From the IMG/VR virus record IMGVR_UViG_2675903278_000002: a stretch of 64,000 nt of DNA; one strand, 5' to 3'. Position numbers and translations under genes: made by a program. Positions 6,602 through 50,957 of the stretch are shown here, in pieces (positions within the stretch are counted from its first letter, which is position 1; every line of letters begins with the position of its first letter). The stretch is from a virus (taxonomy: Duplodnaviria > Heunggongvirae > Uroviricota > Caudoviricetes). The notes under the pieces are model-generated. The model saw nothing but the letters and a program-made list of their open reading frames with translations. It searched no databases and had not been told where the DNA came from.

Positions 6602-6813
6602 TGGCATTAACACTGGCAGGTCTGGAAATCGAGAAAACAAGCGGCTACTGGCGTGCTAAGGGTTTCAAGCAGCCTGGCATTCTTGAGCGTCTGGAACGTG
6701 AAGATGGGTATATCGTCCACCAGCGGCGTGAATGGCGTATGTACGATCCAGAAACAGGAAAACTGACTACAAAAGCCGGAACACTTTGGGGTCTGTTGAA
6801 GAAAATACACTAA
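6601..6813 (+). CDS. hypothetical protein
   Basis: 70-aa ORF, start overlaps upstream stop. Confidence 0.4.
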   Translation: MALTLAGLEIEKTSGYWRAKGFKQPGILERLEREDGYIVHQRREWRMYDPETGKLTTKAGTLWGLLKKIH

Positions 6814-6820
6814 TAGCACC

Positions 6821-7303
6821 AACCACTGCGGTGAGTAGTCTGCTCACCGCATTCGTATCCAGCTCATTATCCACTGTAGTCAGTAACAAAACCTTCCTAC
6901 ATATCTGCTAACCACTGTAGCGAGTAGACAGCCTTTCATTCGCATCAAACAACCACTATGGTGAGTATTGGAGTGAGATGTCCAGCGGGTATCCACTATG
7001 GTGAGTAAGCCTTTGCTGTTTTCAGTGGATATCCACTCGCCACAGTGGATACGCTCAAAGATGAGGGCGACAACAACCACTATAGACAGTAAATTTTCCA
7101 AGATACCCAGTGACCACTAACCTCGCAGCCCTTGTTTCATCAGTGTTAGTGATCACTAACATTTAATTCAGTATTTGCATTCTACTGCCTACAGTGGTTA
7201 TCAACAGATAACGATACTCACTATAGTGGATAGCGAATTACAGATATAAGTAAGGCTCACTACAGTGGATAGTGAGCCTTACTACTAACTACAGTGGTTG
7301 GGC
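6821..7303. repeat. iteron array downstream of repA (about 10 copies of a ~19-bp repeat, both orientations; incA-like)
   Basis: repeated (A/T)ACCACT(A/G)T(A/G)G(T/C)GAGTA units at ~6821, 6869, 6910, 6951, 6991, 7026-7053 (palindromic pair), 7075, and inverted copies at ~7217, 7257, 7287. Confidence 0.75.
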
Positions 7304-40676: not shown

Positions 40677-40795
40677 CGGTTGCAACTTATTGATAATGGC
40701 GGTCACAATTTGATTCTTTTCTATAAGAACCCGTTGATCGCCACTACTCCCCTCCCATACCAGCAATCACATCATTAAATATCAATAGGTTATGG

Positions 40796-41560
40796 TTGTT
40801 TATACAAATAAGAAAACAACTAAATAACAGATCAACGAAACGTCAACGCTTTCACCCGATTTGGTCTAAAAAATTGACGTTTTCACACATCACTTCTTAT
40901 ACCCGTAACTCTACGCAGCAGACATCGCCACAGCGTCCAATTTTCACCACAGACGACCCAACACACTACCAACAAAAACACACGCTCAAAATCGCTCCCG
41001 TTGCGTTACACAACCATATAAACAACTTATTTTCAGGCATAACAAAACAACTAAATAACACACATGCCATTTCCAAAAACAACCAACCTCTTTATGGCAG
41101 GCTACCGAAAAGACCCACCTCTTCTCCCCAGGCTACCGGACAACCAACCTAACTTTCACAGGCAATCCGAAAACATTCATACGCGCGATACCCACGACAC
41201 GCCATTACCCAAACAGCGAAGAAACACCAGAATCACTGAACCCCCAACGAAGCCTGTAACCGCAAGGCTTCTCTCAATCCCAAAAGACACGAAACAGAAC
41301 AATCACGGGAAACGCCATTACCCAACACACGAATAACTACAAAAGCCCTTCACGCACTCCAGACAAACAACTCAAACACAATAACGAAAGGAATCGCCCA
41401 CCTGCCATTACTCCATACACGGAGAAGAACAATCACCAAAACGACGAGAACACCCCATAGAAGAACCACCGCAAAACGAACGAAACCACATACACCGACA
41501 GAGAGAACAACACACCCAATTCACCAACAGAATTAGTCGCCGTATAGAACGTTCTGGAAG
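40796..41560. other. ~750-bp strongly strand-asymmetric C/A-rich, G-poor non-coding tract
   Basis: top strand dominated by A and C with few G; only low-complexity ORFs; internal ~30-bp repeats CAGGC(T/A)ACCG... at ~41097, 41130, 41159. Confidence 0.6.
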
Positions 41561-41747
41561 GAGTGAGTGTTAACGTCCATAGAGAGGTTGAGACAGATAA
41601 AACACGAATAAAACACAACATGTATAGCGAAGAAGCCAGGTATGTATAAGTGGGGAGAGAAGGAGGGGTGTCGCCTCCTTTTTCGTATTTATTCAACTCC
41701 TGATTTTACCCCCCGTAACACCCCTACGGTCAGCCTTCGGTCCATAC

Positions 41748-44760: not shown

Positions 44761-45042
44761 ATGACTGATTTCACCATTACCCCTAAAGCACAAAATGTAT
44801 TTCTTGAATCATGGCTGGACTTGCCGGAAACAGAACAGCAAGAAATGGATCATGTGGATTATGACGAGCAGGTAAGCACGCGATTCTTCCACTTTGAGGG
44901 ATGCGTTTACGACATTGCTGACTTCATGCGAGATGACCGCTTCCCTGAATGGCACGCCAGTTATCCACTAAACGCCTTTGCCATGCTGATGATCCGTGTG
45001 GATGATTCAGGGGATACCATCGACATCGGTCTGCTCCACTAA
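44761..45042 (+). CDS. hypothetical acidic protein (cassette)
   Basis: 93 aa from ATG 44761 (RBS GAGGA); motif A at 44726-44743; hairpin GGCCACCAATGCTGGTGGCC after stop. Confidence 0.5.
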   Translation: MTDFTITPKAQNVFLESWLDLPETEQQEMDHVDYDEQVSTRFFHFEGCVYDIADFMRDDRFPEWHASYPLNAFAMLMIRVDDSGDTIDIGLLH

Positions 45043-45079
45043 AGATTAAGGCCACCAATGCTGGTGGCCTTAAATGACC

Positions 45080-45180
45080 ATCCTGTTTCCCGCAGGCTAA
45101 AAACACCAACCTCTTACCTCCAGGCAACCGACAAACCCACCTGTTCCCGTCCGGCTACCGCAACTTTCCACTTTGACGCC
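45080..45180. repeat. C/A-rich tract with three ~30-bp CAGGC(T/A)A(C/A)CG repeats (short copy of the 40796-41560 tract)
   Basis: units at ~45093, 45121, 45152 resembling those at 41097-41170. Confidence 0.55.
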
Positions 45181-45246
45181 TTATTCGTACAACGATAATT
45201 AACACCAACAAGAAAACAATTTGTTATTTACGATAAGGAATTAATC

Positions 45247-45729
45247 ATGAATTTTATCGCTACTGTAAACGCACCCGCACATGGCAATATCGCTGTAACG
45301 TTCTCTGACATTGAAAAACGAGTACTTGGTGCATGGCGCGACAATGAGACGGTAGAACTGTCAGCACAAGAAAAATGCATTATTGCACGCGACATCATTG
45401 GCAATCGTCGTTACTCGCGGGTATTTGAGAAAGCGTATGTGGTAAATTCTGGGTTCGGAACGTTCGTCTTTCCGGTGCGCTCCGGGCGATTCTGCCAGTC
45501 CAAGCTGATTGAGTTCGCTACGCAGATTTCTGTCTGGATTAAAACTCAATCGTCGTTCAAATTTTCCGACGATGAAGCAGTATCGCAGGGGATGCGGATC
45601 GCCAACAATGCGATTAAATGCAAAAACATTACGTATACCGCTGGCGTTGATACATGGAAACTGTTTTGCGCTAACTTTATGCTGAATGTATACGCAAGCA
45701 ACCGCATCCACATCCTTGATGGCGTGTAA
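45247..45729 (+). CDS. hypothetical protein
   Basis: 160-aa ORF; motif A at 45210-45227; terminator hairpin ~45735-45757. Confidence 0.5.
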   Translation: MNFIATVNAPAHGNIAVTFSDIEKRVLGAWRDNETVELSAQEKCIIARDIIGNRRYSRVFEKAYVVNSGFGTFVFPVRSGRFCQSKLIEFATQISVWIKTQSSFKFSDDEAVSQGMRIANNAIKCKNITYTAGVDTWKLFCANFMLNVYASNRIHILDGV

Positions 45730-45774
45730 CTGAGAAGAGGGCCAGAAACGGCCCTTTCTCTATAGCCACCAGCT

Positions 45775-45890
45775 GCCGCAGGGAAATTTTCAGAAACGGC
45801 GAGGAACGTATTCATAAGCCGACGGGAAACGGCCAGGATTTTTTCGGGAAACGGCTGCATTCGCCTTTATGTAGAAAAAAACATCGGGAA
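45775..45890. repeat. second array of GGGAAACGGC-type direct repeats
   Basis: units at ~45778, 45791, 45822, 45845, 45884, same family as 41748-41890. Confidence 0.6.
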
Positions 45891-46346
45891 GCTGGTGGAA
45901 TCCAACCAGCGGTTGTCGGACAGGCGAGCGGGGAAAATTATGATGACTTTCGTCGCCTGAGACATCCAGATTTCTTTCGTAGCATAATCACATACGTGAT
46001 TAAGTGGTGTGATTATGTGAAAAATCACGCGCACATAATACGCGAGCGGATACGGAACAAAACAAAATGCCGATCCGCGCCGACAAATAAACGCGGATCA
46101 CATAGCAAGAATAAAAGCCAATGATTAGCCATACGTTATAGCGCAATATAACGCATTTTAAGCGCGTTAATGTGCTAAGTAATGGGTATGTACTGGTAAG
46201 GATATAAAAGCGCGTCTATGGCGTTATTTTGGCGCTTATTTTTATGTTGTTGGAGTGAGTTAAAGACAATAAAAAACGCGCCATCATTGGCGCGCTATGG
46301 TGGGAGTATTGGAAACGAAAAAAGCGCCCATAGTGGGCGCTCGATT

Positions 46347-46577
46347 TTATTTGTGTAAACTGATTTTAAATCCCATTTCTACAAACGCTTTTAACATTAA
46401 AAATATATCAGCGTCGTTGATTCCAATATCCGAACGCTCAATATCATTTAATAAATCAATTTTACGCGTTGTTTCATCGATAAACTCGACTGAGCGCCCA
46501 GCGTAACCAGCGATCCCAGCGATGCGATTAACAAAATATTCATTGCGCACGTTAACGCCAGCGATAAGAACAAACAT
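46347..46577 (-). CDS. hypothetical protein (low-GC island)
   Basis: 76 aa; strong RBS AAGGAG; AT-rich codon usage. Confidence 0.45.
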   Translation of the reverse strand: MFVLIAGVNVRNEYFVNRIAGIAGYAGRSVEFIDETTRKIDLLNDIERSDIGINDADIFLMLKAFVEMGFKISLHK

Positions 46578-46598
46578 GATAAAGCTCCTTAAAAAAAA

Positions 46599-46802
46599 TT
46601 AAATAGAATTTTGAAGTTTTCCGATTAATGCGCTTAAACGTAAGTATTCACGTTTGCGCTTGCAATCTCGCTTGCTGTTGAGCAAATCAGAAAACGTAAA
46701 ATTTAATTGGTCGCGTTGCGCGATCAAATCATCGATTAATTCCAGTTTATAAGCGCGATACTTTGCGCGATATTCCGCGCGGATCTTGTCATAGCTGACC
46801 AT
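46599..46802 (-). CDS. hypothetical small basic protein (low-GC island)
   Basis: 67 aa from ATG at 46802 with RBS AAGGAG (ORF track start 46847). Confidence 0.4.
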   Translation of the reverse strand: MVSYDKIRAEYRAKYRAYKLELIDDLIAQRDQLNFTFSDLLNSKRDCKRKREYLRLSALIGKLQNSI

Positions 46803-46850
46803 TTTTAAAGCTCCTTTAAAGCGCCCACTATGGGCGCTTGATTCCATTAA

Positions 46851-47501
46851 TTACGCTTTGAAAGCATCAGCTAAATAATTGTAGAAATCATTTTTAATGA
46901 AGCGATATTGCTGAGTACCAGCTTTCGCGCTCCCAGCTCCTTTGACTTTTTCAACAAGTCCAAGACGTTCGCAAAGATTGATCAACTGGTTGGCTTGAGT
47001 ATAGCCAGCGTCCAATTTAATTTCGCACGCTTTTTTCGCTTCATTCATTAAATCGAAAACAGCGCCATTGGTGAACGTGTCGATCTCGTCGTTAATCATA
47101 TCGATTAATGCGAATACACGAGATCCGGACATATCAGCGACGGAATAAACACACTTTCCAGCTTTAATGGATTTAACCAGATAAACCAGTTTTTCCAGAG
47201 AATAACTATTAGTCATTGCATCACGGAAAAATACTTCTGGCGCTTGTTTGCTTGCTTTGATCGCATAGTAGAAAACAGAGCACAATTTTTCGTCTTCTAC
47301 AGCGTTTACAACGTTGTTGATGAAGTAAGCAAGTTTAGTGGTTGCAGCTTGCATATTTGCTTTGTCTGCTTTGGTGTGCGTGCCATTTTTATAATGTTCG
47401 TTATATGTTTGAGTTGCCAGATCTGCTTTTTCGCGCAGTTCATCGGATACAATGGAAGCAGCTTCAATGATGGATTTTTTAGAAATGATAATGTTAGCCA
47501 T
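46851..47501 (-). CDS. hypothetical protein (low-GC island)
   Basis: 216 aa; RBS AAGGAAAAATTATCATG; possible helix-turn-helix-like C-terminal segment. Confidence 0.5.
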   Translation of the reverse strand: MANIIISKKSIIEAASIVSDELREKADLATQTYNEHYKNGTHTKADKANMQAATTKLAYFINNVVNAVEDEKLCSVFYYAIKASKQAPEVFFRDAMTNSYSLEKLVYLVKSIKAGKCVYSVADMSGSRVFALIDMINDEIDTFTNGAVFDLMNEAKKACEIKLDAGYTQANQLINLCERLGLVEKVKGAGSAKAGTQQYRFIKNDFYNYLADAFKA

Positions 47502-47784
47502 GATAATTTTTCCTTATGTAAATTTAAAATTTATTGTCGTTAGCGTCTTCGCTTTCGACGAGTTCAATTATCGATATGCGAAAAAAGATTGCAAGTGTTT
47601 TTTTTAAATTTTTTGCAGGGATGAAAGTCCTAGAAATAAAAGCGAGATCGTCGAAGGTGTTCCCTAAATAAATAATTGATTGCGGCTTTAGACCTTATAT
47701 ATATTTAGGTTATTTGATTTGTAGATATAAAGAAGTGATGTGAAAAATAATAACCGGACTTAGCCGGTTATTAACCTTATAGAT

Positions 47785-48093
47785 TTATTGAACAGACTCT
47801 ACAGCCTTACGATTGGTGTCAAATAGCGCATCAACGAACTGTGCCGATGACTCGCTAGATTCGCAATCCAACATTGCCCGTTCTTCATTTGCCACTTTCT
47901 TACACAGTTCCACATTCTCACCTATCGCTTTTCCTGCTTTTACGGCTGCCGAAAATTGATACATGCAAACTGATACATTCTGAGACGTTGAGCACACGTC
48001 ATTCATCAGCGACTGAATGACAGGCTTATAGTCCATTGCATTTGCCGCAACTGAGCAAAGTAAAAATAATGGTGGTAACAATATCGATTTCAT
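47785..48093 (-). CDS. hypothetical exported Cys-containing protein
   Basis: signal peptide MKSILLPPLFLLCSVAANA; 102 aa. Confidence 0.5.
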   Translation of the reverse strand: MKSILLPPLFLLCSVAANAMDYKPVIQSLMNDVCSTSQNVSVCMYQFSAAVKAGKAIGENVELCKKVANEERAMLDCESSESSAQFVDALFDTNRKAVESVQ

Positions 48094-48096
48094 AAC

Positions 48097-48621
48097 TCAA
48101 AAAGGCAAAATTCGTTCAACCCAATCGAACAAAACAACTATTTTTCTACCGTTCTCGACACGTAGTGTAACCTGACAAGCATCTGCGCCTGCTGACACCC
48201 CCTCAATTTCACGGCCATCCGCCATGTACACCCTTATAGATTTGTTTGCTTTGTAGGCTTGGTTGCAAATTGCAAAAAAATCGCGGCGTGATGGCCGATT
48301 ATCGACATAATCAGGGTGAACTGTTAGTCGACCTTTGAAATCGTGAGCGATACTGTCAACCACACCTGATTCAATTGTACTAATGCGTTCAAGTGGGAGC
48401 CTTATACGATTTTCTTTGTCAAAAGGGGCTGGGCAAAGGTCAACTTTGTTACGAGATGGCATGAGGCCATAAACGTACATGCAAAACGCCTGGCCATCTT
48501 CGAGAGTGACCCTTACAGGAATTTGTTCTCTGCGCCAGAACATCAGTAGTTTTTCAACGTTAGTGTAATCTCGCGGCCAGAGTTCAGCTTGGATACCGTA
48601 GGTAATATCTTTGGTTGTCAT
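48097..48621 (-). CDS. hypothetical protein
   Basis: 174 aa from internal Met chosen to avoid overlap with upstream lipoprotein gene; start uncertain. Confidence 0.4.
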   Translation of the reverse strand: MTTKDITYGIQAELWPRDYTNVEKLLMFWRREQIPVRVTLEDGQAFCMYVYGLMPSRNKVDLCPAPFDKENRIRLPLERISTIESGVVDSIAHDFKGRLTVHPDYVDNRPSRRDFFAICNQAYKANKSIRVYMADGREIEGVSAGADACQVTLRVENGRKIVVLFDWVERILPF

Positions 48622-48625
48622 ATCA

Positions 48626-49048
48626 TCACAGAGTTGTTGGCAGAATGTCGATGTCACCAGAATTGCTGGTAAACACCCTGAACGCTTTTGTGTCTCCATT
48701 CTTCAGAGTCGTTTCTCGCTCTTGACGAGCGGGGTTTAGAGCACATAAACCTGCACCTTCAAGAGATGCACCCACAATTAATTCTCCGGCATTTAAATGG
48801 AAAGTCGCTTTTTCGCCTGTAGCCAGTTTTGCGACAGTTTCGCCGTTGATGAAAATGGAAGCATCACATCCAGCTCCTACAAAACCTGTGTCTCTCATTA
48901 CCACCAACGTAGCTGGCGCTGCGCTTTGATACTTGAACACTTTGGCCTGCGGTGCTGGTTTGGCGTCATGGATTGATATTGGGTGTGATTGGCACGCGGC
49001 AAGCATCAACACTGGTAACGTTAGTAGAGGGAGAAGCGAGTATTTCAT
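48626..49048 (-). CDS. hypothetical lipoprotein
   Basis: signal peptide with lipobox (LMLAAC) from Met at 49048; 140 aa. Confidence 0.5.
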   Translation of the reverse strand: MKYSLLPLLTLPVLMLAACQSHPISIHDAKPAPQAKVFKYQSAAPATLVVMRDTGFVGAGCDASIFINGETVAKLATGEKATFHLNAGELIVGASLEGAGLCALNPARQERETTLKNGDTKAFRVFTSNSGDIDILPTTL

Positions 49049-49116
49049 GATAGTTTTAGAACAGAAAGTGAACAGTATGGGAGACTTCATCTTTGTCTCC
49101 CTAATTGATAGCGTGA

Positions 49117-49395
49117 TTATTTTAATCTGCTTAATAGCGTTTCGAGATCTTCCTTTGTCATATTAGAGTTCTCATAGATACGCATGATTTTCTCACGAGT
49201 CTTAGCGGAAGCCCCGACAGAAGATATAACCTTGTCAAAGTCGGCCATTGTCAATTGTTCCAGAATGGTATTTATGACTTCAGCCTTAGACATTTTGATA
49301 TTTTTTTCTTTTAGTTTCACTTGAAACTTTCCAAGTTTGTCATTGGCCTTATCAGACAATGCTACCTGACAGTAAGTTGTTTTCTTTTCACTCAT
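49117..49395 (-). CDS. hypothetical protein
   Basis: 92-aa ORF directly downstream of the helicase gene on the minus strand. Confidence 0.45.
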   Translation of the reverse strand: MSEKKTTYCQVALSDKANDKLGKFQVKLKEKNIKMSKAEVINTILEQLTMADFDKVISSVGASAKTREKIMRIYENSNMTKEDLETLLSRLK

Positions 49396-49397
49396 AA

Positions 49398-50957
49398 CTA
49401 ATCTCGTTTCAGAACTCCAAAATCGAATGCTCCATCAATAGGCAATACACCTTCTGCAAAGCCAGGTGTGGTGTCGATGATGTGTTTTCGCTCATAAGAG
49501 TGAGACAACAGGTATTTGTTGCTAATGTCAATGAAATCAGTGATAAAACACACGTTTGCCTGATTTTTTTTGGCTCGTAAGCCACGACCGACACGCTGCC
49601 TCATTTCAACTTCTGCTTTTCCACCACCAGCCAGAATGACCGCACCAACGCTTGGCACATCAACACCGACATCCAGAATAGTCGAGCCTATTAAAACATC
49701 TATTTCGCCAGACGCTAAACTGTTCAGCTTTGCTTGCCTTGTCGCCTGGTTCGATTCCCCATAGATGAAGTCAACTTTAAGACCTGACTCCTTCATCATC
49801 TCCATCAGGATTTGCCCGTGGCGTTTAAGACGAACCAGAGTCATGCAATTGAGAGAATGTTGCTTATAGAGCAATGCTTCGCGCACAATGGCCTCGTTAC
49901 GTCCCAAATTATACACGATCCCCAACTGATAAGCCTTTTGGTAGGCTGTGCTCATACCTACTCTAAAATTAAGGTGTTTGTTGGCAAGTTCCGCCTTGAT
50001 TCTGACCTCGTCTGGCTTGTAAGCAACTTTATGATAAAGGAAGTACGGTTTTGCCAGAATGCCTCGATCAATCAGGTACTTTTCTGTGACTTTAATTTCA
50101 ATTCGACCGGCCACAGCCATCAGACGCATGTTGGCTTCTGTAGAATCCTTCATGAACGGCGTGGCCGTAAGCGCCAGACGATAGTCTGCGTTCACACATA
50201 ATCTGGCAATGTCATAGAAATTAGAGCCTGAAGACTCATGCGCTTCTTCCAGAATAAGCAGAGACACACTTGAAAGGAAGCGTTTCACCAACTCCCGACG
50301 TTTGAGGTGGTAGCTTTTCTTATCTGGTGTTGCATCGCGTGGTGGTTCTTCGAGGAAACTTGCAAGAGTTTGAACTGTAGCGACGTTGATATGTCGTGAT
50401 ACCTGGAACTCACCCGAGCCAATGACTCCAACCTTTTGGTCTTTTAACCACGGTTCGCCATTTTCGGCGCGGTAGTCGATGGATCTCTGGAAGTTTTCGG
50501 CCATTTGAAACATCAGAACAGAGCGGGTTGTTAAAAATAATGTCATTCGACCGATACGTGCAGCTGCTTTGCAGGCAACGTTAGATTTCCCGCCACCAGT
50601 AGCGATCTGCGCAATCATCATTCCCTCTCGAACCAGTGTTTCCACAGTCTGATCCTGATACGCATAATCAGGATTGTATGGGAATGGGTTAACCGCCGGA
50701 TTTGGTTTACCAAGCGCCGGGGCTTTGTCTTTGCGGATATGAACACATTTGATGCCCGCCTTGTTCAAGTTCGCCGCTACAGGCTTGGCAAAGCCAGCAG
50801 GGAACGAGTTTTTACTCCAGTTGAACATCGTGCTTGTGCCCTTCCAGTCGCCAGTCTCGACTTCGTAGCTCAACATTTGCTGCACCAGTTGCTTTACCTT
50901 GTCATCTGCGCCAGAAATAAGCGCATTTACTGCGTTAGATACAATCCGAACAGTCAT
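49398..50957 (-). CDS. superfamily 2 DNA helicase (UvsW-like by context)
   Basis: Walker A ATGGGKS, DEAH-type box LILEEAH, helicase C motif QRVGRGLR; 519 aa. Confidence 0.7.
   Translation of the reverse strand: MTVRIVSNAVNALISGADDKVKQLVQQMLSYEVETGDWKGTSTMFNWSKNSFPAGFAKPVAANLNKAGIKCVHIRKDKAPALGKPNPAVNPFPYNPDYAYQDQTVETLVREGMMIAQIATGGGKSNVACKAAARIGRMTLFLTTRSVLMFQMAENFQRSIDYRAENGEPWLKDQKVGVIGSGEFQVSRHINVATVQTLASFLEEPPRDATPDKKSYHLKRRELVKRFLSSVSLLILEEAHESSGSNFYDIARLCVNADYRLALTATPFMKDSTEANMRLMAVAGRIEIKVTEKYLIDRGILAKPYFLYHKVAYKPDEVRIKAELANKHLNFRVGMSTAYQKAYQLGIVYNLGRNEAIVREALLYKQHSLNCMTLVRLKRHGQILMEMMKESGLKVDFIYGESNQATRQAKLNSLASGEIDVLIGSTILDVGVDVPSVGAVILAGGGKAEVEMRQRVGRGLRAKKNQANVCFITDFIDISNKYLLSHSYERKHIIDTTPGFAEGVLPIDGAFDFGVLKRD

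Follow-up and report, generated by a model that had tools for sequence, protein, structure and literature searches.

A minus-strand operon with optional small genes between terminator-like hairpins in an SSU5/pHCM2-type phage-plasmid

Anti-defence acr-aca operons set a conserved gene of helix-turn-helix (HTH) type beside variable, tiny orphan open reading frames (ORFs) in a mobile element, and are off when quiescent. The classical morons of lambdoid prophages are small extra genes of lower GC content, with regulatory bounds that include a terminator, which vary between conserved genes and are expressed from the repressed prophage through a promoter of their own. In T4-type phages, promoter-early stem-loop (PeSL) cassettes consist of small, non-essential ORFs of unknown function bracketed by repeated motifs that carry a strong early promoter and a terminator stem-loop, and the indel and replacement joints between relatives fall within the motif (Arbiol et al. 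2010, PMC2839356; Comeau et al. 2014, PMC4122927). Here we compare with these systems a three-gene operon, read from the minus strand, in a 64,000-nucleotide stretch of viral DNA (Caudoviricetes; IMG/VR record IMGVR_UViG_2675903278_000002; hereafter the window). With moderate confidence, we read the locus as a self-contained, lysogeny-silent operon of an SSU5/pHCM2-type phage-plasmid, in which a core gene, p216, is followed by two optional small genes, p67 and p76, slotted between copies of p216's own terminator hairpin.

A core gene and two independently occurring small genes

The ~1.9-kb region that holds the operon matched 712 plasmid records, mostly of ~110 kb and labelled 'non-mobilizable', from Escherichia, Klebsiella, Enterobacter, Yersinia and Salmonella hosts, as well as the phages SSU5, Cyrano, PhiR41_1 and CMS-2020a; these plasmid and phage matches indicate that the window is part of an SSU5/pHCM2-type phage-plasmid. 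Phage-plasmids of this type are often met in E. coli, Klebsiella, Salmonella and Enterobacter of clinical origin. We found no functional study of the operon genes in the literature on SSU5-like elements, and annotated relatives label all of these genes 'hypothetical', with the sole exception of SSU5_119, a p67 homologue. Our comparisons drew on 82 related loci (3 annotated phages and 79 IMG/VR contigs, with genes placed by tblastn); the strand of p67 and p76 was checked in 72 loci, boxes upstream of p216 were surveyed in 87 loci and aligned in 70 distinct sequences, and the contexts of more distant relatives (p216 31–54% identical) were obtained through exact-protein look-ups.

All three genes lie on the minus strand, p216 at 46851–47501 (216 aa), p67 at 46599–46802 (67 aa) and p76 at 46347–46577 (76 aa), and match PHROG 1513, 6145 and 1585, respectively, from end to end. 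The start of p67 is an internal ATG of an 82-aa ORF; PHROG 6145 covers residues 1–67 of 67, and the homologues are 67 aa long. Ratios of nonsynonymous to synonymous substitution rates (Ka/Ks) against diverged alleles were 0.04–0.05 for p216, ~0.05 for p67 and ~0.23 for p76, indicating purifying selection, and the three ORFs are real genes. An earlier sequence-only reading of the window had described them as a low-GC island of three AT-rich minus-strand ORFs with strong AAGGAG-type ribosome-binding sites. The ORFs are indeed present, and their low GC was borne out: where the window averages 46.3 ± 2.8%, the three-gene block has 38.6%, which places it in the bottom 1.3% among stretches of 1155 bp, and the spacer upstream has 30.4%. 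Strong ribosome-binding sites were found for p67 and p76, which share an identical Shine–Dalgarno (SD) box, AAGGAGCTTTA, at 46806–46816 and 46580–46590 (minus strand), whereas that of p216 is the weaker TAAGGAA. The 'island' holds for the genes and their low GC but not for a single unit, p216 being a deeply conserved core and p67 and p76 accessory.

This division is seen in the relatives. p216 occurred in 82 of the 82 loci, with an fljA-like repressor gene on one side and a convergent gene for a 160-aa protein (p160) on the other. The small genes came and went independently: both were found in 21 loci plus the window, p67 alone in ~28, p76 alone in ~23 and neither in 8, which places p67 in ~49 of the 82. 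Alleles of p76 are mosaic relative to constant p67 and p216, and some relatives carry a paralogue of p76, p75 (~50% identity), which replaces p76 or stands in tandem with it. Where p216 genes clustered at 99.5% nucleotide identity or above, all members of a cluster had one architecture; mixtures appeared only at ~97%, a pattern that argues for rearrangement that is rare and evolutionary, with no switch.

At greater distance (31–54% identity), the gene order was ABC-ATPase, ParB, ParB, UvsW-like helicase, 0–3 variable small genes, p216, 600–750 bp of non-coding DNA and a convergent small-gene array, and the synteny of ParB/ParB, the UvsW-like helicase, p216, a ~600-bp spacer and convergent genes was kept down to 31% identity. 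The p67 family is confined to SSU5-like elements; its 43%-identical homologue in the most divergent of them (L084; p216 53% identical) lies in the same slot, between two hairpins, and on this ground p67 appears to have long accompanied p216 and to have been lost on repeated occasions. One chromosomal relative (L083; E. coli chromosome CP125919.1, 387706–397936, in a 5.2-Mb record) holds a p76-like gene (64% identity) and an fljA-like gene, with ~1 kb of uncalled sequence at the expected position of p216, and looks like an SSU5-like element that has integrated and decayed.

Hairpins, cassette joints and the inversion question

The small genes had been described as bracketed by the same 19-bp hairpin, and both copies are exact, AGCGCCCATAGTGGGCGCT at 46323–46341 and AGCGCCCACTATGGGCGCT at 46820–46838. 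These are the only two sites of the motif in 64 kb (0.12 expected), and they share an identical 8-bp stem together with flanking bases (AATCnAGCGCCCA; 31 nt, 81%, in direct orientation). On the minus strand, the terminal copy with its U-tract (46312–46342; GAGCGCCCACUAUGGGCGCUU-UUUUCGUUUC) has the make-up of an intrinsic terminator and is the predicted terminator of the operon: a GC-rich 8–9-bp stem with a 3-nt loop (−15.5 kcal/mol, z −4.3), followed by UUUUUUCGUUU at the 3' end of the unit. A second, tandem terminator hairpin, conserved among relatives, lies at 46265–46296 (minus strand; AGCGCGCCAAUGAUGGCGCGUU-UUUUAUUG), likewise with a GC-rich stem and a U-tract, and the two jointly fold at −30.6 kcal/mol (z −4.7). 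The internal, intercistronic copy (46820–46838, minus strand) has the stem but continues into UUUAAAGGAGC, with UUUAAAGGAG where a terminator would have its U-tract; because the U-tract is missing, this copy should let RNA polymerase read through, and it resembles the intercistronic stem-loops that modulate read-through or mRNA stability. Rfam returned sub-threshold chance matches only; the one to Hrs1, at 46268–46334, reached 28 bits where the gathering score is 56 and was driven by the two hairpins.

How this arrangement may have arisen is suggested by the junctions in relatives. In the minimal state (L053, without small genes), the p216 stop is followed by AGCGCCCA-CTA-TGGGCGCT, UUUUUUCGUUUC and the second hairpin, so that the counterpart of the internal hairpin carries the U-tract and closes the operon. 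Larger states add units of an SD sequence of AAGGAGC type, a small ORF and a stop after the stem. However many stem copies there are, it is the last of them that precedes the U-tract and second hairpin, the last hairpin copy having a U-tract in essentially all architectures. Writing H for the hairpin, the other states are H-p67-H, H-p76-H, H-p67-p76-H and H-p75-H-p76-H; where there are two p76-type cassettes, there are three hairpin copies (L022 and L026). These junctions argue that the two 19-bp hairpins are duplicates of p216's own intrinsic terminator, the 'bracket' being a by-product of cassette insertion. In a distant relative (L085), a hairpin of the second-terminator type is the sole terminator after p216.

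The joints themselves are sharp. That between p67 and p76 is the SD box, whose copy ahead of p67 forms the upstream and whose copy ahead of p76 the downstream joint of the p67 cassette: in Cyrano, which is without p67, the gap maps exactly between the two SD-box copies. In SSU5, which is without p76, the gap runs from the hairpin to the p67 stop, and indel joints coincide with hairpins in dozens of loci. We propose that the 19-bp stem and the 11-bp SD box serve as short homologies for the gain, loss, duplication and swapping of cassettes (p67, p76 and p75), and that cassette exchange would proceed by rare recombination between related elements. A more ordinary explanation is that the hairpins are transcription stops and nothing beyond that, the small ORFs ordinary neighbours and the similarity of the repeats convergent. 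The suggestion that the hairpins are simply terminators fits the terminal copy, whose features are canonical, and its tandem partner, but not the internal copy. Moreover, stem and flanks are shared between the copies and found nowhere else in 64 kb, the copies multiply with the cassettes and indel joints fall at hairpins again and again; this combination speaks for duplication and recombination rather than convergence, and leaves the ordinary explanation unlikely.

Two further places show small genes beside terminators. A 102-aa ORF (p102; 47785–48093, minus strand; PHROG 9536), whose N-terminus looks like a signal peptide by inspection (MKSILLPPLFLLCSVAANA), is a third optional cassette: it starts 3 nt past the stop of the fljA-like gene, its insertion falling precisely between that stop codon and the terminator hairpin of the same gene, and it occurs in ~24 of the 82 relatives, being absent from SSU5, Cyrano and PhiR41_1. 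That hairpin (47748–47773, minus strand; −12.6 kcal/mol, z −4.35, followed by UUUUU) is conserved and separates the fljA-like/p102 unit from the p216 operon. In L086, a distant relative whose p216 is 31% identical, a hydrophobic ORF of 29 aa (MKSLFTKVFQFILIGVLVVPLVWWWMLAF, read by eye) fills the slot between two terminator hairpins (6640–6830), and this slot appears to have been reused for unrelated cargo.

Much the same observations bear on whether the segment could invert. The sequence-only reading had the two hairpins in inverted orientation, possibly marking a mobile or invertible mini-cassette. Their loops are reverse-complementary (TAG and CTA), but each stem is a perfect palindrome, so that orientation is set by the 3-nt loop alone, and the flanks match in direct orientation. 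Among relatives, 39 loci have CTA in both loops of the pair, 9 have TAG/CTA and 8 have CTA/TAG (122 CTA to 18 TAG over both hairpins), and rarer pairs are again reverse complements (TTA/TAA, TTG/CAA and TCA/TGA); the loops of the unrelated second hairpin (46275–46296) do likewise (ATTGTT/AACAAT, 23/8; AATGAT/ATCATT, 9/8). The recurrence of reverse-complement loops in both hairpins points to recurrent loop flipping within palindromes, and the 'inverted orientation' is best read as a 3-nt loop flip, a mutation expected in a perfect palindrome, with no inversion of the segment. Every loop variant was seen in both orientations in the window and its counterparts (L001–L084), which makes the locus a clean natural case of palindrome loop inversion in its own right.

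An invertible or excisable mini-cassette at 46323–46838, worked by site-specific recombination at inverted 19-bp repeats, would account for the two identical 8-bp stems with reverse-complementary loops in the window and for the varying content among relatives. Yet neither p67 nor p76 lay on the strand opposite p216 in any of 72 loci, the two loops are alike in 39 loci and flip at either hairpin as well as at the unrelated one, and architectures are stable within near-identical backbones. Each repeat being palindromic, the orientation of the pair is undefined, and the asymmetric flanking inverted repeats typical of Hin/Gin/Cin-type systems are replaced here by palindromes that depart from symmetry only in the 3-nt loop. 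No recombinase domain was found in a scan of the neighbours (p160, p102, the fljA-like product, a 92-aa ORF, both ParB proteins and the ABC ATPase), which covered these genes rather than the whole element; the UvsW-like helicase is known from the annotation of relatives (Cyrano record; Pfam DEAD/ResIII/Helicase_C). We therefore consider an invertible cassette extremely improbable; of the mini-cassette idea, the modularity, with joints exactly at the hairpin and SD box, survives and the inversion does not. An integron gene cassette was also considered and rejected (attC sites of 57–141 bp with R''/L''-L'/R' cores, and IntI): the 19-bp perfect hairpin is without a GTTRRRY core and without an Rfam match, and no integrase was seen among the neighbours, where alone it was looked for.

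Expression, protein identities and the upstream boxes

Published transcript data are available for Cyrano, carried in E. coli LF82, whose p216 is 98% identical to that of the window and which has p76 without p67. In overnight lysogeny broth (LB) culture of the lysogen, CYRAN_113 (p216) stood at 5.9 and CYRAN_112 (p76) at 4.99, the floor, against an element median of 9.8, with the neighbours at 18 (fljA-like), 46 (UvsW), 114 (CYRAN_117) and 25 (p160) (PMC9928086). On a scale of log2(5 + fragments per kilobase per million reads), p216 rose from 2.3–2.8 in LB to ~5.5–5.7 only after 6 h in macrophages, and the toxin–antitoxin (TA) genes of Cyrano (KacT, RelE and HicAB) were at 9–60 times background (PMC9928086 Table 1, S1 Table). 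In this one relative and under these few conditions, the operon is off while the element persists as a plasmid in lysogeny. Such silence argues against roles in TA systems, abortive infection or lysogenic conversion and favours one at infection or induction.

The small genes had been thought compatible with a TA or abortive-infection pair, in the present terms a type II TA or abortive-infection pair that stabilizes the plasmid state or protects the host. They are adjacent in a plasmid-like element and have strong ribosome-binding sites; p67 is basic (isoelectric point 9.7) and p76 acidic (5.2), and p67 gave a very weak PADLOC match to PDC-M47B (E 0.027). However, no toxin, antitoxin or defence model of Pfam, NCBIfam or PADLOC matched either protein above threshold, and the structure model of p76 was too poor to inform on fold. 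More decisively, type II partners are co-inherited and expressed in the carrier state, whereas all four combinations of p67 and p76 occur among the 82 loci, which largely refutes a pair; p76 alleles are mosaic relative to p67, and in the LF82 lysogen the p76 and p216 homologues are unexpressed while the TA genes of the same element are well above background. The TA reading is thus very unlikely to be correct.

As for p67 itself, it looks helical and has no membrane-spanning hydrophobic stretch by inspection. The homologue SSU5_119 (L002) is labelled 'MIT family metal ion transporter' / CorA, a label that was carried into PHROG 6145, category 'moron, auxiliary metabolic gene and host takeover'; because p67 lacks such a stretch, the label is very probably an annotation error.

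The core protein is an orphan with a predicted fold. Its model comprises an N-terminal helical bundle (residues 8–114) and a C-terminal winged helix (129–213), the latter conforming to the winged HTH fold. p216 had no Pfam or NCBIfam match, no match to a curated HTH family and none to the Protein Data Bank (PDB) by profile search, and a profile search of 1.84 billion representatives returned 23 clusters only, all of the same family; nor was there a full-length structural match in the PDB or a significant one in BFVD. It stands outside the sequence families of the ArsR/SmtB, MarR, PadR and TubR winged-helix proteins and differs from them in its unrelated 110-residue helical N-domain. From the model, p216 is a probable DNA-binding protein.

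The DNA upstream of p216 offers candidate sites. A consensus scan placed a putative sigma-70-type promoter at 47567–47594 (minus strand; −35 TTGCAA, 16-nt spacer, −10 GATAAT), both hexamer regions of which are conserved across the 70 distinct upstream sequences. Beyond it lie boxes of the form AAATMTATAAGGKT at 47693–47702, 47775–47784 and, inside the fljA-like gene, 48232–48241 (all minus strand), and two blocks that are at least 95% conserved in the same alignment, TTTATTTAGGGAACACCTTCGA at 47650–47670 and TTTTATTTCTAGGAC at 47626–47640 (minus strand); the box ATATATAAGG is conserved there as well. The motif ATMTATAAGG occurs three times in the window, each time on the p216 strand (0.23 expected), and in 84 of 87 loci it was found only upstream of p216 and on the sense strand, including relatives at 31–33% protein identity, which have three copies 46–68 bp apart. 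Non-coding conservation to such depth implies a protein-binding array, for which p216, whose gene is co-conserved beside it, is the obvious candidate binder. A regulon search with TTATTTAGGGAAC returned no other copies. The TTTATTTAGGGAACAC box resembles SP6/K11 promoters by eye, a candidate that was set aside, as the matching positions are not those conserved in distant relatives.

The main alternative for these boxes is an origin or centromere, with p216 as the lytic replication initiator or a TubR/AspA-like segregation adaptor, the AT-rich spacer with its two or three AAATMTATAAGGKT boxes as an iteron or centromere array and the small genes as passengers. Direct repeats and a 30% GC spacer directly upstream, kept to 31% identity, would suit this, as would the invariant linkage to the UvsW-like helicase and ParB/ParB/ABC-ATPase genes and the fact that the spacer downstream carries, at its far end, another conserved array of repeats (CGGGAAACGGC). 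On the other hand, p216 is silent in a lysogen that keeps ~5.5 plasmid copies, so that it cannot serve as initiator or partition protein in the plasmid mode; a winged helix is far more commonly that of a transcription factor; and a set of two or three boxes spaced 46–150 bp apart ahead of a promoter is equally compatible with autoregulation. We regard an origin- or centromere-binding role as improbable, if less so than a TA pair.

Under the operon reading that we favour, transcription would begin at the sigma-70-type promoter (47594–47567), preceded by the deeply conserved direct-repeat boxes (AAATMTATAAGGKT and others), and yield p216, with its helical N-domain and C-terminal winged-helix DNA-binding domain, as a regulator that probably acts on its own upstream boxes. 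The original terminator of p216 would have become a plug-in slot in which small ORFs, each with its own AAGGAGCTTTA, follow the stem and are reached by read-through, and transcription would stop at the second stem-loop copy, with its U-tract and tandem hairpin, short of the convergent gene array. The silence of the operon in the plasmid state makes infection or induction the most likely time for its products to act, p67 (old and basic) and p76 (younger and mosaic) perhaps as dispensable accessory factors of host-takeover or anti-defence type. Several points weigh against this account: there are just two hairpin copies in 64 kb, hence a single local slot and no genome-wide shuffling system; the case for read-through of the internal hairpin rests solely on its missing U-tract; expression in lysogeny is known from one relative that is without p67, not from this element or from induced cells; and p67 and p76 are tied to no known host-takeover or anti-defence family. 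A bolder version, which we put forward tentatively and think doubtful, would have the SSU5 super-family use the locus as a dedicated platform for 'terminator-slot' expression, in which autocontrol by p216 through the AAATMTATAAGGKT boxes would gate, only at infection or induction, a changeable orphan payload (p67, p76, p75 and the 29-aa peptide of L086) directed against host defences or serving takeover. Recombination at the SD box and the split hairpin would bring in new payloads, a promoter-less counterpart to PeSL shuffling and to acr-aca loci.

Flanking features and comparison with known systems

The upstream neighbour, the fljA-like gene (48097–48699, minus strand), encodes a full-length homologue of FljA, the phase-1 flagellin repressor (PF03614, E 2.5e-84), with a weak Hfq-like match at its C-terminus (E 0.001). 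It is conserved in nearly all SSU5-like loci and absent from the most distant relatives; in the LF82 lysogen it is expressed, and it goes up in macrophages.

Downstream, the flanks had been called rich in palindromes, as they proved to be: all those listed are present, namely AATCACATACGTGATT (AATCAC-N4-GTGATT) at 45986–46001, TGTGATTATGTG at 46008–46019, CACATAAT at 46033–46040 and CGCGCCATCATTGGCGCG at 46277–46294, and positions 45000–49500 hold 12 terminator-like hairpins against 4.4 ± 2.2 in shuffles, 9 of them within 46028–46342 and including two further minus-strand ones at 46028–46044 and 46071–46100. Across relatives, the spacer is least conserved where it carries the palindromes of 45986–46040, and the palindromes and hairpins at 45986–46100 may be lineage-specific. 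As candidate operators, AATCAC-N4-GTGATT and GTGATTATGTGAAAAAT were rejected, since they neither recur in the window nor are conserved. The conserved parts of the spacer are the p160 terminator, the CGGGAAACGGC repeat array, a block at 46150–46250 and the two hairpins.

The CGGGAAACGGC direct repeats (45791–45856, plus strand) are strongly conserved in SSU5-like loci, with 5 matches in the window against 0.78 expected and near-copies at 41306, 41792 and 41845; an array occupies the same relative position in a 33%-identity relative and is found in L085 (7035–7167) and L086 (7196–7270), making it a candidate iteron, centromere or other protein-binding array. The block at 46150–46250 (GTAATGGGTATGTACTGG ... 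TTGGCGCTTATTTTTA) is strongly conserved and non-coding, includes a plus-strand terminator-like hairpin at 46212–46236 and could be a small RNA or a regulatory site. Further away, 40750–41650, within the region that the sequence-only reading had called a cassette array, shows extreme strand asymmetry (GC skew to −0.51, AT skew to +0.62) and also holds CGGGAAACGGC near-copies.

Compared with the acr-aca operons, the locus has a similar cast, with a conserved gene for a predicted HTH-type protein beside variable small ORFs, and is likewise silent in the Cyrano lysogen, but the order of the genes is reversed, the regulator coming first, and p216 is larger than known Aca proteins. Compared with classical morons, p67 and p76 are likewise small lower-GC additions with a terminator at their bounds, but they are without a promoter of their own, and in the LF82 lysogen the Cyrano operon gives no sign of expression, its values falling short of the cut-off for morons applied in PMC9928086. 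Intrinsic terminators and intercistronic stem-loops each resemble one of the two hairpin copies; what differs here is that a predicted terminator is duplicated and split from its U-tract by inserted ORFs.

The analysis does away with a tempting misreading of the locus as a TA pair or an invertible switch, corrects the propagated annotation of p67 as a metal-ion transporter and offers, in p216 and the conserved upstream boxes, a concrete putative regulatory unit that is off in lysogeny; it leaves current understanding in place. For the movement of cassettes, the nearest known analogue would be the modular shuffling of PeSL cassettes. The two differ in several respects: the motif here is a stem-loop plus an SD box, a consensus scan found no promoter-like site between the hairpin and the ORF starts, and the ORFs would ride on the transcript of the upstream gene; PeSL motifs exist in dozens of copies across hyperplastic regions, whereas the 64 kb here contain two copies, both in one slot, and some relatives three; and the element is a temperate phage-plasmid. 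They are alike in that a repeated motif with a terminator stem-loop brackets small ORFs and that the indel and replacement joints between relatives fall in the motif, and in this respect the locus would show, cleanly and on a small scale, how gene cassettes are exchanged at joints made of terminator hairpins and ribosome-binding sites.

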